Notes: a model not told the origin generated them from the letters alone. DNA of 48,953 nucleotides from a virus (IMGVR_UViG_2579778802_000015), one strand, 5' to 3'. Shown: positions 2,051 through 32,194, counted from the first letter of the stretch. Program-made: numbers and translations.

Positions 2051-5000
2051 TCAGCTAATCGTGATGCCTGCAGTGGCTTTCTTCATCACCACAACCAGCA
2101 AATCGCTGATACTTGCTGTGGGATACCAGTTATTTACCAGCCATGCTGACACCGAAAACTCCAGTGTCATGTGACCGTGACCGGCAGGCATATCAATAAC
2201 GCCACTGTAAATCAGCGTATTATCCAGCGCGGTACGGTTATAAATTTCAGCACCGTTTTTCCGCACTATCAGACGGCATGAGGAGTAAATATCAGTATGC
2301 TCTCTCTTATGCTTAGCGCCACTGAATGCCACCGCCGGAATAACAATCTGCCGGTCAAACGGCTGATCGTCATAAACCCTGACGGTAATGGTCCCTGATG
2401 GCCACCGCTCCGGTGCACGGGAGTCCCGGGGGAAAGCTTTGCCCACTGTTTTAACGAGATCGCCTTCAATCTGGTTGGCGGACAGTTTTCCCAGAACCCG
2501 ACAGTTCTCGTTAATCGTGACGTTGTTGAGCGTCCCGGAGTTCGCATTCACGTTACCGCTGATATCGGCATTTTTCGCCGTCAGCCGCCCGTCCGGTGTC
2601 AGGGAAAATGCCGGAGGATTACCGCCGCTGGCAATGGTGGGAGCCGTCAGGCGTTTCAGGAACACGTCGTTCATGAATATCTGATCGCCCTGACCAACAA
2701 ACATCGGCTTTGTGTTGCCATTCGCAGGATTAATCATCGCAATCCTGTCTGCCGCCAGCAGCACCTGACTCTGCATGCCGTCAGGGGTGTTTTCAATACC
2801 GGCACCAATACCCGCGATATAAAGGCGTCCGTCCTGCATCTGCTGCAGCTTCACAGCCCACATGCTGTTCAGGTTATTATTTGTATCAACCTGAACCTTC
2901 TGTATCTGCTGGATTGCCGCACTCTGGTCTTTCAGTTTCTTATTGACAGTCTGCGTGATTTCATTGCTGACATCCGTAATGGACGTCCTGATTTCAGCCA
3001 GGTCAGGCGCAAGCTGACCGTTATCAATCTGCGTCCACAGCTCCTGAGCCAGATGTGTTTTCCCTATCTCTCCTTTGAAAAAATCCAGGTAACCTTCCGC
3101 ATCATCGCTCGCCCGACCGACAGCCTCCACGAATGCCGATTTGCCAACAGTATTCACACTGCGGATATAAAAATAATAATCATGGCCCGGTTTGATATTG
3201 ATACTGGCAGCTATCCAGTACAGCGCCGAGCCAAGATAGCGGGCTGCGGTTTCAACCTGCCTGATATCCGCAATCCGCTTTTCCGAGAACCAGAACTCAA
3301 ACTGTACCGTCGGGTCATAAACGGCAAGATGCGGCGTGGCGGTTATCTGAAAATAGCCCGGCGTCAGCTCAATAGTGACCGGTGCCGCAGGCGCGTTAAT
3401 CCTGAAGGTGGTGGTCGCAGGTTCGCCCTGCTGGCCATAACTGTTAATCGCCCTGACCGTCAGGGTGTATTCCCCCAGCGGCAGGCCGCTGAAACGGTGC
3501 TCCGTGTCTGCGGTGATGGCGGTGGTCACCAGTCTGGCATCCGTTCCCTTACCACTGGTCAGGCGCAGACTGAAGCGCACACCCTTCACCACCCGCGGCG
3601 TGTCCCATTTAGCCTGCGCCAGATACTGGCCGTCAGCTGCACTCACCTCCACCGTCAGGTGCTGTACTGCCGGTGGGATGACGCTGTTCAGGGAACCTGA
3701 CTGCGGCTCAAAGCGGGCACCGTTATCCACGATGGCTTCTTTTTCCGGTACGTGCTGCACCGCCGTGATGGCAAAGGTGCCGTCCGTGTTTTCCCGGACG
3801 GAGACACAGCGGAACAGGCGACGGCGCAGTGACGGCAGGGAGAGTCCCCACACACCGTATGTCTCCACACCATCCGGCAGGGTGCTGACCTGTATCCGGT
3901 CAGGCGCGGGGTGTGCGGTGATGGCCACGCTCGCCGGCTTACCGCTGCCGTTAATCAGATTAACAGTGGTCGTGCCGGTCTCCGGCAGTGTCACCTCCCG
4001 GTCCAGCGTCAGGGTACGGCTGGCGGCATCGATGGACAGGACACGTCCGCCGGTCATGGTCCCGGCATAGTCGTTATCACAGATTTCAATGATGTCACCG
4101 GGTGTGTGACGCAGCCCCTGTGACCCGAGCGTGAAATCCACCGTCTGCGTTTCCAGCAGTTCGGTCTTTATCACCCACAGCCCGGCACGGTGGGCCTGAC
4201 CGCGGCTGGTACAGCCGAACGCGTCCATCTTCAGCAGGTTGCGTCCGTAGCGCAGTATGGCTTCCGGGTCTTCCACCAGTTCCGTGGAGGTCTGCCAGCC
4301 GTTCTGCGGGTCGGTGTAATTCACCTCCACCGCCGTGTGCCGGTCCTTCAGGGCACTGAAGCTGTAGCGGAAACCCACGCCGTTATCATCCACCACCACA
4401 TCGCTGCTGGTGTACGGCCACACCACATCCGACGGGCGGTCCTGAACGAACGTCAGCGTCTGACCGTTCCATACCGGCATACAGCGCATCGCAGAGCAGA
4501 AATCACTGAGAACGTCCCACGCCTTACGCTGTTGTGCCAGGTACGCATTAAAGGTCATCCGCGGCTCGGTCCCCCCGAAACCATCCGGGACCGTCTGGTC
4601 GCAGTACTGCCCGATGGCATACAGCGCCCACTTGTCCACATCCGCCGCCCCCAGACGTTTTCCCATGCCGTAGCGCGGGTGAGTCAGCATGTCCCACAGA
4701 CACCAGGCCGGGTTGTTGCTGTATGCCGGTTTCAGGCTGCCGTCCCAGATACCGCTGTACGTGCGTTTTTCCGGGTCATAGTTTGACGGCACCTGGATGA
4801 TGCGACCGCGGATATGGTAGTTCACCGTCATCTGCTGGCCGCCGAACTGCTCCGCATCCACCTGCAGCCCCACAATGGCCGTGTTCGGGTAGCACTGTTT
4901 CACATCGATGATTTCGGTGTATGACGACCAGAGCGTCTTATTCTGCAGCTGGTCCGTGGTGCTGTCCGCCGTCTCCCTGACCATCCGGATGTTAAAGGGC

Positions 5001-5524
5001 CGGGGAGGCAGATTATCCAGAATCACCGACGCCAGGAACTGCGAGGTGGTCTTGCCGTTAATGGTGACATCCTTTTCCGTCATCCATTTACCACCACGCT
5101 CAAGCTGAATCAGCAGGCGGACAGACGTCGGGTTACGGTCACCCTTTGAGGTGGTCTCCACCAGTGACTGCACCCCGAAGGTAACCCGCAGGCGGTCAAT
5201 GTTCGCGGACGTAATGGTGCGCGTCACCGGCTTTGCCTTCGTCACTTCCACACCCAGTACAGTTTCAGCTCCGGAGGACTCAAAGCCTTCCGGTGGTGTC
5301 TGCTCCTGCTCCCCGGCGCGCCAGACCGCTGTCACACCGTGTATCACGGGATTACCGTCCGTGTCCGTCAGCGGGGTTTTGTTCACCAGGATACTCTGCA
5401 GTCCCTTCACCGGGCCTTCCACCGGTCCCTCACCACTGGCATCAATCACGCTCATCATCTGCGTGGATTTGAGATTATCCTTCGCCTCACGAGGTGTGTG
5501 TGCCTTACCGCCACCTTTTCCCAT
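2051..5524 (-). CDS. J: Tail tip / host specificity protein J
   Basis: 1157 aa; N-terminus [22 protein letters not shown]... and long colinear similarity to lambda J as recalled. Confidence 0.95.
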
Positions 5525-5628
5525 ACAGCCTTCCCCTGAATAAATTAACCGCCACTTGCCATTCCGTACAGAAGTCGGATATCCTTCGCCCGAAAAGCAT
5601 GAAACACATTTCTGCCATGCTAAAGAGA

Positions 5629-5663
5629 AACCCCGGTATCAGCAGATACCGGGGTTTTCTTTC
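5629..5663. terminator. Hairpin terminator, possibly bidirectional, in the I-J intergenic insert
   Basis: AACCCCGGTATC-agca-GATACCGGGGTT flanked by T-rich runs on both strands. Confidence 0.5.
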
Positions 5664-5726
5664 ATGCCCACCGATAATCCTGTTGGTTAAAACCGGTAAT
5701 GGCATAAAAATTCTGAATATCTTCAC

Positions 5727-5757
5727 ATTTTCACACACTGACTGTGGCGCTTATAAT
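5727..5757 (+). promoter_or_regulatory. Candidate sigma70 promoter (perfect -10 TATAAT at 5752-5757) antisense to the tail operon
   Basis: TATAAT with a weak -35 (TTTTCA, 18-nt spacer); an intrinsic terminator lies about 70 nt downstream on the same strand. Confidence 0.3.
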
Positions 5758-5822
5758 TTCTCTGCGTTAATTTTTTTGTCGTGATATAAGAATAATTCCT
5801 TACACTTAATCTTCGTAACTCT

Positions 5823-5869
5823 CCCGCAGTTCCTGTCCGCGATCACTGCGGGATTTTTTTATTCTTTTT
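5823..5869 (+). terminator. Intrinsic terminator on the plus strand in the I-J intergenic insert
   Basis: CCCGCAGT...ACTGCGGG hairpin followed by ATTTTTTTATTCTTTTT. Confidence 0.55.
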
Positions 5870-6548
5870 ACCCCTGCCGCCCGATAACCACGACCGTTCC
5901 GCCCCCGCCTTCATCACGGGTGCTGATGTCCTGGGATATACGGCGGGAGCCAACCAGCATTTCCCCGTAAGGCACCGGCATCGGGTTCCCCTGGGCAATC
6001 ATGTTATCCAGCGAGGAAAAGTACGTGTTCTGTCTGCCGTTATCCGTTGCGCGGTAATCCGGTGTTTTTGCCTTCGGGGCCAGCATCTGGGCCACACCGC
6101 CCAGAATCATGCTGGCTCCAAGTGAAAACAGCATCGTGGTGGCAGAAAAACCACCGGCTGCCAGGGCTGAACCCCATAACGCCATTGATGCCCCGGCAGT
6201 GAAGAAAGAGCCCACGATGGCTGCCGCCCCCAGCACAATCTGCAGTCCACCCTTTCCGGCCCCGGCCAGTCGCGGCACAATATGGATGACCGTTCCCTCA
6301 CCCAGTGGTTCGTGAAGGCGGGCATACACCGCCTCCGGTGCCGTATCCTCACCGGCAATGCGTATCTGGTACCAGCCTTCGTTCATCTGACGGCGAAAGC
6401 CCGGCACCTGTAACGACAGCGCCCGGATGGCTTCCGCTGCCGTGTTCACATACAGGCTGAGGCGGCGGCCAAATCGTTGTAAATCCCCGTGAAGGCAGAT
6501 GCGTGCCAGTGGCGGTGACGCCAGACAGAATGCGTTCGTCGTTGCCAT
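5868..6548 (-). CDS. I: Tail tip assembly protein I
   Basis: 226 aa; MATTNAFCLASPPLARICLHGDLQRFGRR... with glycine-rich hydrophobic middle; position between K and J. Confidence 0.9.
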   Translation of the reverse strand: MATTNAFCLASPPLARICLHGDLQRFGRRLSLYVNTAAEAIRALSLQVPGFRRQMNEGWYQIRIAGEDTAPEAVYARLHEPLGEGTVIHIVPRLAGAGKGGLQIVLGAAAIVGSFFTAGASMALWGSALAAGGFSATTMLFSLGASMILGGVAQMLAPKAKTPDYRATDNGRQNTYFSSLDNMIAQGNPMPVPYGEMLVGSRRISQDISTRDEGGGGTVVVIGRQG

Positions 6549-30221: not shown

Positions 30222-30547
30222 GACTTAATCTTCCCCTCCTTCAGCAATATCGCCAGCGTCCTGATCACGCCTTCCAGGTGGTAAAGTCTGGCGTCGTTGT
30301 TGTCGAGAATGCGAGTACGGCGATCGATTTCATTATGGCAGTCACTACAGGCCCATGCAGCCAACAGATCATCTGGCTTTGTTCCCGTTCCGCAAATTCC
30401 AGCCATTCGGTAATGCGCCAGAACTGTAGTTTCAGGGTTGCCATTGCATACGCCATAAATCCGTACCTGGCATTCTCTGCCGCGCGCTTCTTTGCGTAGG
30501 TTTGTCATCATCTTATTCCTCATGCAGTAGGCTATCCGGAGTGACAA
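30218..30547 (-). CDS. Nin-region Cys-rich protein (YbcO/DUF1364-like)
   Basis: 109 aa with CxxC-type motifs; upstream of rusA as in DLP12. Confidence 0.55.
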
Positions 30548-31886: not shown

Positions 31887-32194
31887 GACAACGCCCTCTG
31901 GTTGATGAATTTAACTATCACCACCGTCAGGTGCAAATCTTTGGGTGGTGAGACGTACAGGGTTTGCACTACCGGATCAACCAACCGGCGAGCCTTTCGG
32001 CTCCCCCATACGCCCCACCATAATTCAGATGTGCGTGTGCTTACGACAACAAAAAACACGCTCGCGGCGTGTGTCTGTCGCGGTTGAATATCCGGGGTGC
32101 AAATCCCGACGCCAGATTTTGCTGGCGTGCGAAGAATATAATCCCGGATATGTGTTGTCGTCAACATACCTTGAATGTATATAACAAATTTGTT

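Follow-up and report, generated by a model that had tools for sequence, protein, structure and literature searches.

The gap between the tail genes I and J of the virus genome IMGVR_UViG_2579778802_000015, analysed here as a window of 48,953 bp whose lambdoid tail operon lies on the minus strand, appears to hold an autonomous small RNA (sRNA) gene on the opposite strand (5704-5860, +). We read this gene, with a probability of about 0.75, as a divergent allele of the PasB family known from enteropathogenic Escherichia coli (EPEC), encoding an Hfq-dependent RNA that would act in trans. The element is a new, divergent, common and unannotated allele of a family, and of an Hfq-sRNA mechanism, that are already known. 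This reading is built on sequence signals, homology, position, distribution and allele structure, all of which are observed directly. Prophage sRNAs form a link between mobile DNA and the regulation of the host, and some of them are known to change virulence or resistance to phages.

Transcription signals antisense to the tail operon

In an alignment of loci the best-conserved part of the gap is a promoter block (5704-5763, +) that contains the -35 element TTCACA (5730-5735), a 16-nt spacer and the -10 element TATAAT (5752-5757), the last at the very site given in an earlier note on this DNA. That note had called the -35 weak, which needs correcting: TTCACA is strong, and together with the -10 it matches 11 of the 12 sigma-70 consensus positions (TTCACA-16-TATAAT, 5730-5757, +). 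When both strands of the whole window were scanned this was the sole site with a score of at least 11/12, whereas dinucleotide shuffles lead one to expect 0.38 sites of this quality in a whole window and about 0.003 in 343 bp.

A Rho-independent terminator follows on the same strand (5822-5860, +), its stem beginning 65 nt 3′ of the -10. The stem consists of 9 G+C-rich base pairs, TCCCGCAGT (5822-5830) with ACTGCGGGA (5845-5853), closed by a 14-nt loop and followed by U7 (5854-5860). The hairpin and T-run that had been described about 70 nt downstream of the promoter are thus present, the stem being one pair longer than the 8 bp first counted. The structure fits the family form CCCGCAG...CUGCGGGA followed by at least six U, and the stem core CCCGCAG/CUGCGGG is unchanged in the sampled alleles, but the scans by which the alleles were collected required that core. 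Both the promoter and the terminator are genuine signals, far stronger than chance would give.

Transcription is predicted to start near G5764, giving an RNA of about 97 nt (5764-5860, +), in support of the roughly 100-nt transcript antisense to the tail operon that had been proposed earlier. The mature 5′ end may sit some nucleotides 3′ of 5764, since the homologues described below measure about 83-85 nt on Northern blots.

The gap that holds these signals spans 343 bp (5525-5867), exactly as previously delimited, and the corresponding I-J spacing in lambda is only 60 bp. Its upstream flank in the direction of the operon is the tail assembly gene I (5868-6548, -; PF06805, E = 1.4e-15), whose stop codon on the opposite strand lies 8 nt beyond the end of the terminator. 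The downstream flank is J, the tail tip and host-specificity gene (2051-5524, -), which matches six GpJ domain families (Pfam E = 1e-31 to 1e-41).

Relationship to PasB

PasB is an 83-nt sRNA of prophage PP6 in EPEC O127:H6 E2348/69 (NC_011601 1466343-1466261, minus strand) that was found by RIL-seq (ligation of interacting RNAs, then sequencing) by Pearl Mizrahi et al. 2021 (PMC8550237, Tables S2, S5, S6); it was seen on a Northern blot, has 37 RIL-seq partners and drops steeply when hfq is deleted (log2 fold change -6.8; PMC8550237). A later survey of the Pas sRNAs is that of Zhu, Shabalina and Storz 2026 (bioRxiv 10.64898/2026.05.13.724894). Inspection of the E2348/69 region shows that PasB runs antisense to the two genes between which it is placed, I (annotated 'tail assembly protein') and gpJ. 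PasB and the window RNA therefore occupy the same I-J gap on the same antisense strand and fall in the same size class. The likeness extends to the sequence: the promoter block of about 60 nt is identical to window 5704-5762, the 3′ arm of the terminator and its U7 are identical, and GCGUUA, a U-run, an A-R-N stretch, UCCUU and AUCUUC are common to both RNAs. Window 5836-5855 is complementary to the Northern probe that was published for PasB.

A profile hidden Markov model built from 12 alleles of PasB type, Sakai type and a third type, with window-type sequences excluded, matches the window only once (nhmmer), at 5764-5859 (E = 6.1e-15), and the match takes in model positions 1-95 of 96. The element thus shares with the family its locus and strand, homology, a promoter of its own, a terminator and a single-stranded core. 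The suggestion that the gap might encode one of the known prophage sRNAs is borne out to the extent that locus, strand, promoter, terminator and profile match identify it as a divergent relative of PasB.

That relationship is not identity. The longest exact run that the 83-nt PasB has in common with the window measures 25 nt, the seed of PasB contains the hexamer UUCACAUUG where the window has UUACACUUA, the terminator loop of the window is 5 nt longer and its stem one pair longer, and upstream of the promoter PasB carries a 75-bp left module, L2, in place of the 180-bp module L1 of the window. The pairing stretch CUUCACAUUGAUCUUC, by which PasB could be defined more narrowly, is not conserved either, the window carrying CCUUACACUUAAUCUUC.

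Established names do not cover the element. RefSeq annotates nothing at the locus in the genomes examined, no family of Rfam 15 matches 5764-5860, whether the gathering threshold or an E-value limit of 10 is applied, and a literature search by sequence fragments returned no relevant paper. Weak Rfam matches such as STnc310 (19 bits) were set aside, being chance-level matches that lie on the L1 hairpin. Several named sRNAs were likewise rejected as identities: svsR maps to the 3′ end of the cI repressor gene; HnrS is a 66-nt RNA equal to EcOnc10-12, at other coordinates; and AgvB and AsxR are located downstream of PR′, their Rfam models missing the window.

Homologues in enterohaemorrhagic E. 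coli

In enterohaemorrhagic E. coli (EHEC) O157:H7 Sakai, EcOnc22 (prophage Sp15), EcOnc23 (Sp14) and EcOnc24 (Sp11) were reported as homologous Hfq peaks in CRAC (a cross-linking method with cDNA analysis; Tree et al. 2014, PMC4104026, Table S2), and EcOnc22 gives a Northern band of about 85 nt that is destabilised in an hfq deletion strain (PMC4104026). Each of the three maps to the J-I gap of its prophage, on the strand opposite to the tail genes, and the relative offset is the same in all. These gaps hold a third allele, a predicted 91-nt RNA antisense to the tail genes (Sp15 locus, NC_002695.2, L072 5837-5927, with equivalents in L073 and L074) that is 74% identical to both PasB and the window RNA. 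AgvB1, as located by Rfam, shows the 2014 Sakai coordinates to be displaced from the current version by +137 to +146 nt at 1.94 Mb, and with an offset of +128 to +146 the CRAC peaks land inside the predicted RNA. EcOnc22-24 and PasB very probably belong to one family. With the window RNA the Sakai RNAs share the terminator core and the motifs AACUCC and UUAAUCUUC; they differ in a weaker-looking promoter, CAATAAT without a good -35, and in having the L2 left module.

No paper was found that links EcOnc22-24 with PasB. The PasB entry in Table S6 carries no note of an EHEC homologue (PMC8550237), the text of the 2026 survey does not mention EcOnc (bioRxiv 10.64898/2026.05.13.724894), and a 2021 review lists EcOnc22-24 as of unknown function (PMC7873438). 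One widespread family with many seed variants would thus stand in the literature under two unconnected names.

Conserved motifs in the body of the RNA

Scans of IMG/VR yielded 51-54 distinct alleles, in which the 5′ GCGUUA, the U-run, the A-rich stretch, AAYUCC and the terminator are near-universal. The U-run of the window RNA (U7, 5771-5777, +), found in nearly all of the 24 alleles that were aligned, may have a role in Hfq binding. The A-rich stretch AAG-AAU-AAU (5788-5796, +) reads as (A-R-N)x3, and A-R-N repeats are the motif recognized by the distal face of Hfq (PMC4104026); it is a candidate distal-face site on this account, with three triplets in the window RNA against five in PasB (AGU AAC AAA AAC AAC). 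Downstream lies the putative seed region UUCCUUACACUUAAUCUUCGUAACUC (5796-5821, +), which is unpaired in the centroid fold and holds AAYUCC and (A/G)AUCUU(C/U), conserved motifs that flank a hexamer variable between alleles. In the window RNA this single-stranded core comprises AAUUCC (5794-5799) and AAUCUUC (5808-5814). AUCUU(C/U) is kept in 53 of 53 distinct alleles in a scan that did not require that motif. A 5′ hairpin could also form between the U-run and the A-rich stretch, both sides of which are near-homopolymeric. Conservation of motifs in a non-coding gap points to selection on the RNA itself, and the pattern across alleles argues for it.

A different product of the gap would be a small protein, encoded instead of or besides the RNA. 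Open reading frames (ORFs) are present at 5505-5738 (-, 77 aa), 5494-5784 (+, 96 aa) and 5556-5690 (+, 44 aa), and one phage record annotates a 'hypothetical protein' under L1. These ORFs have no Pfam or PHROG match, they cross the promoter, the hairpin or the J start, and they are missing from L2-type loci that retain the sRNA; the predicted RNA itself, read from its sequence, has no ORF longer than 2 codons. A coding function for the gap is therefore highly improbable.

Distribution and coverage by the published survey

Among 5,426 complete E. coli genomes, 800 (about 15%) carry the window-type RNA, 613 of these at 99% identity or more. Its carriers, counted irrespective of pathotype and not only EPEC or EHEC strains, include ATCC 25922, IAI39 and many isolates from human clinical, wastewater and environmental sources. 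The PasB-type RNA is present in 956 of the same genomes, including ST131 EC958 and O157 strains, so the window variant is about as common as classical PasB.

The Pas survey used megablast with a word size of 28 and a query coverage above 75% (bioRxiv 10.64898/2026.05.13.724894). At that word size the 83-nt PasB query has no match in the window, and the match obtained with sensitive blastn covers 30% of the query against the 75% cut-off. The window-type allele fails these settings and was therefore almost certainly missed and left uncounted. To that extent the sRNA repertoires of E. coli carriers, among them clinical isolates and the ATCC 25922 reference strain, are counted too low.

Outside Escherichia, matches in a species-representative collection were either chance matches or short contigs 80-99% identical to this tail region. 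Three contigs bear the labels of unrelated taxa, namely 'Streptomyces flavalbus' (L081, NZ_JBHTEB010000006.1), a 'Clostridiales bacterium' metagenome-assembled genome (L082) and 'Parendozoicomonas haliclonae' (L077); they are probably the result of contamination or mis-binning.

Modular architecture of the gap

The gap is assembled from exchangeable parts. The left module L1 (5525-5703, 180 bp), the spacer from the J start codon to the sRNA promoter, is replaced in other phages by the 75-bp L2. RNA bodies are of window type, PasB type, Sakai type and others, and all four pairings of the two left modules with the first two of these body types occur, which implies recombination at the shared promoter. 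Several promoter variants exist among the IMG/VR loci. In some relatives the P1 promoter is replaced by sodC (Cu,Zn superoxide dismutase), which lies between J and the RNA body, is oriented like the sRNA and has a terminator of its own; examples are IMG/VR contig L131 (2500-3040) and the 'P4' loci such as L084 and L123, where this cassette stands directly upstream of a window-type body. The presence of sodC in related gaps marks the I-J gap as a hot spot for moron insertion and the sRNA gene itself as a moron.

The same observations could be turned against a functional product. The gap of the window might be a scar left by the gain and loss of morons such as the sodC cassette, with surviving signals that no longer yield a functional RNA in this allele. 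Related phages do have sodC and a terminator where the promoter would be, the family is highly mosaic, and L1 is invariant and without relatives elsewhere. A decayed locus would not be expected to retain an 11/12 promoter as its best-conserved block, nor the family motifs, and the allele is at least 99% identical in 613 genomes of diverse origin. Two sister alleles are moreover expressed and bound by Hfq. We consider a relic quite improbable.

L1 is 100% identical in 13 phage records and was found only at this position; its invariance in all copies found makes conservation uninformative either way. It contains a strong hairpin (5627-5658, both strands) with a stem of 13-14 bp (5627-5640 with 5645-5658) and a 4-nt loop. 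The fold has an energy of -27 to -32 kcal/mol (z = -5.7 to -6.7), and none of 200 shuffled sequences was as stable. Flanked by A-rich sequence to one side and by T-rich sequence to the other, it resembles a terminator whichever strand is read, which agrees with the earlier description of a second, bidirectional hairpin. L2 carries a different hairpin with a T-run on the operon strand. The I-J spacer of lambda (J02459 15445-15504; L191 846-905) likewise has a hairpin just upstream of J, AAACCGCC-CGCA-GGCGGTTT, accompanied on the operon strand by a T-run. The hairpins of L1 and L2 seem to correspond to an ancestral hairpin between the two cistrons, and the sRNA gene looks as if it had been inserted between the end of I and that hairpin. 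Such a hairpin could serve as a terminator for unmodified polymerase, as an element of mRNA processing or stability, or as an insulator for the sRNA promoter.

Within L1 there is also a weak promoter-like site, TTGCCA-18-TATCCT (9/12; 5556-5585, +), about 40 nt upstream of the hairpin. Together with the hairpin (5627-5663) it could yield a second plus-strand RNA of about 75 nt.

Targets and proposed mechanism

For PasB the RIL-seq data name partners that include E2348C_2648, the napF 5′ untranslated region (UTR), map, hflX, fabR, rplX, caiF, ftsZ, the tolC 5′UTR, ler, bfpB and perB (PMC8550237, Table S3). Of the five Pas sRNAs only three were reported to have a common target motif, and the motif table does not list PasB (PMC8550237). 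The napF 5′UTR is among its two most abundant partners (70 chimeras, odds ratio 28; PMC8550237). In five of the seven high-odds PasB partners examined the chimera sites lie at start regions: ftsZ, caiF and napF chimeras fall on the start regions of those genes themselves, and the fabR (fabR-yijD junction) and E2348C_2648 (junction) chimeras fall on the start region of the next gene.

The napF start region is predicted to pair extensively with PasB. Nucleotides 39-54 of PasB (CUUCACAUUGAUCUUC) can form an uninterrupted 16-bp helix with one G-U pair over positions -10 to +6 of napF, which has a GTG start; none of 200 shuffles did so. The paired segment (NC_011601 about 2431262-2431277, minus strand; L186) covers the Shine-Dalgarno sequence and the GTG, and the local duplex has an energy of -26.7 kcal/mol (z = -3.6). 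No paper was found that reports this pairing, and the translation start of napF, the first gene of the periplasmic nitrate reductase operon, is a testable candidate target of PasB. The stretch UCCUUCACAU(U) of PasB also pairs with caiF codons 2-4, and the same stretch pairs with the yijD Shine-Dalgarno region at the end of fabR; both helices are of 10-11 bp. These pairings locate the seed of PasB to the conserved core together with the variable hexamer that separates AAYUCC from AUCUUC.

With napF the Sakai allele gives a duplex of intermediate energy (-19.7 kcal/mol, z = -2.0), and no napF pairing is predicted for the window allele. With caiF and fabR-yijD the longest helices of the window allele are at chance level, by a statistic that is noisy in that the U-run pairs with any purine-rich stretch via G-U. 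The seed of PasB spans the allele-variable stretch, and the targets of the window allele are therefore probably different. The window RNA probably shares its mechanism with PasB and has a regulon that is partly or wholly different.

The mechanism we propose would operate as follows. The strong sigma-70 promoter would fire in the lysogen, independently of phage late transcription, and the resulting RNA of about 85-97 nt would be bound and stabilized by Hfq via the terminator hairpin and U7, probably also via the A-R-N stretch. The RNA would then use the unstructured C/U-rich stretch upstream of the terminator to pair in trans, chiefly with ribosome-binding sites and first codons, and would reduce translation or stability of the paired mRNAs. 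Since the pairing region would include the allele-variable stretch, the set of mRNAs would be partly or wholly other than that of PasB.

An action mainly in cis has also to be weighed. The RNA is perfectly complementary to the I-J part of the late mRNA, and pairing during lytic growth could lead to cleavage by RNase III and to uncoupling of I from J. In a variant of this idea the strong head-on promoter would itself interfere with late transcription, tuning the dosage of J, the host-range protein, or silencing leaky expression of tail genes in the lysogen. Position and antisense orientation are kept in every allele and module combination, and a stable hairpin just upstream of J, which always follows the gene in the direction of the operon (L1, L2 and lambda), could be a processing or stability element. 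A search for trans targets within the prophage found none that were significant. A pure antisense RNA, however, needs no conservation of sequence, yet specific motifs are invariant across 53 alleles; the end of the RNA lies more than 230 nt from the J ribosome-binding site in the window, so that direct masking does not apply; and in cells that have not been induced PasB is an abundant, Hfq-dependent RNA that becomes ligated to many mRNAs from unlinked genes. A mainly cis-acting RNA is accordingly unlikely in our judgement, and a cis role is in any case compatible with a trans role, so that the two can coexist.

The best match inside the prophage, an observation from the same search, is an 11-nt perfect complement GAAGAUUAAGU at 30223-30233 (RNA of the minus strand) to the sRNA core ACUUAAUCUUC; shuffled cores yield matches in the same range.

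Several points weigh against the reading of the window element as an Hfq-dependent, trans-acting member of the PasB family. Its body is only 72-74% identical to that of PasB in a global alignment. RNAalifold on 24 alleles recovers only the invariant terminator stem, with zero covariation, and so lends no support from structural evolution. Some relatives have a weaker -10 or no recognisable promoter, so that expression is not assured across the family. The best duplex of the window allele (CCUUACACUUAAUCUUC) with napF has an energy of -10.7 kcal/mol (z = +0.85), no better than that of shuffled sequences, and transfer of the PasB targets was rejected as a whole, with none of seven RIL-seq targets pairing beyond chance. 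The link to EcOnc22-24 depends on the inferred offset of +128 to +146 nt, which was calibrated at a single site 0.2 Mb away. Expression of the window allele, its binding by Hfq and its mechanism in trans are carried over from the homologues.

A broader proposal reaches beyond the single allele. The I-J sRNA may be a recombining cassette with a fixed chassis, consisting of the promoter, the U-run, the A-R-N stretch, AUCUUC and the terminator, and with exchangeable seeds that plug different regulons into Hfq. The window allele would then control a set of host genes distinct from that of EPEC PasB, and might act in cis on the I-J junction as well. We put this forward tentatively, at somewhat less than even odds. 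The family would in either case be a natural experiment in which changes of the seed re-target an otherwise fixed Hfq-binding scaffold.

Other predicted RNAs in the window

Elsewhere in the window there are matches to further RNA families. Two tandem copies of STnc100 (RF02076) lie at 27466-27674 (-) and 27950-28141 (-), with 130 and 145 bits against a gathering threshold of 47; in EHEC Sakai a copy of STnc100 directly adjoins AgvB. Adjacent Rfam matches are found for the Hfq-binding RNA isrK (32051-32128, -; 75 bits) and the C4 antisense RNA (31941-32025, -; 74 bits). The pairing of isrK with C4 is typical of the immunity and anti-repressor region of P1/P7-like and Gifsy-like prophages.

Comparison with known systems

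Among known systems the closest in organisation, apart from PasB and EcOnc22-24, are AgvB, AsxR and the other sRNAs of moron sites (Tree et al. 2014). Like the I-J RNAs they are short, Hfq-dependent and independent units at a fixed position in the late region, and they form families in which the 3′ part is conserved and the targeting part varies. They differ in their site, which is downstream of PR′ and not in the I-J gap, and they have no sequence similarity to the window RNA. They also act as sponges of core sRNAs, whereas for PasB the EPEC data hold only one chimera with the PasA region. DicF of the Qin prophage offers a second comparison, being encoded by a prophage and dependent on Hfq, and ftsZ mRNA is also found among the RIL-seq partners of PasB. 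Its sequence and locus are unrelated to those of the I-J RNAs, and the predicted pairing of PasB with ftsZ is weak and, by helix length, at chance level; what DicF and the I-J family have in common is that both are Hfq-dependent RNAs carried by prophages.

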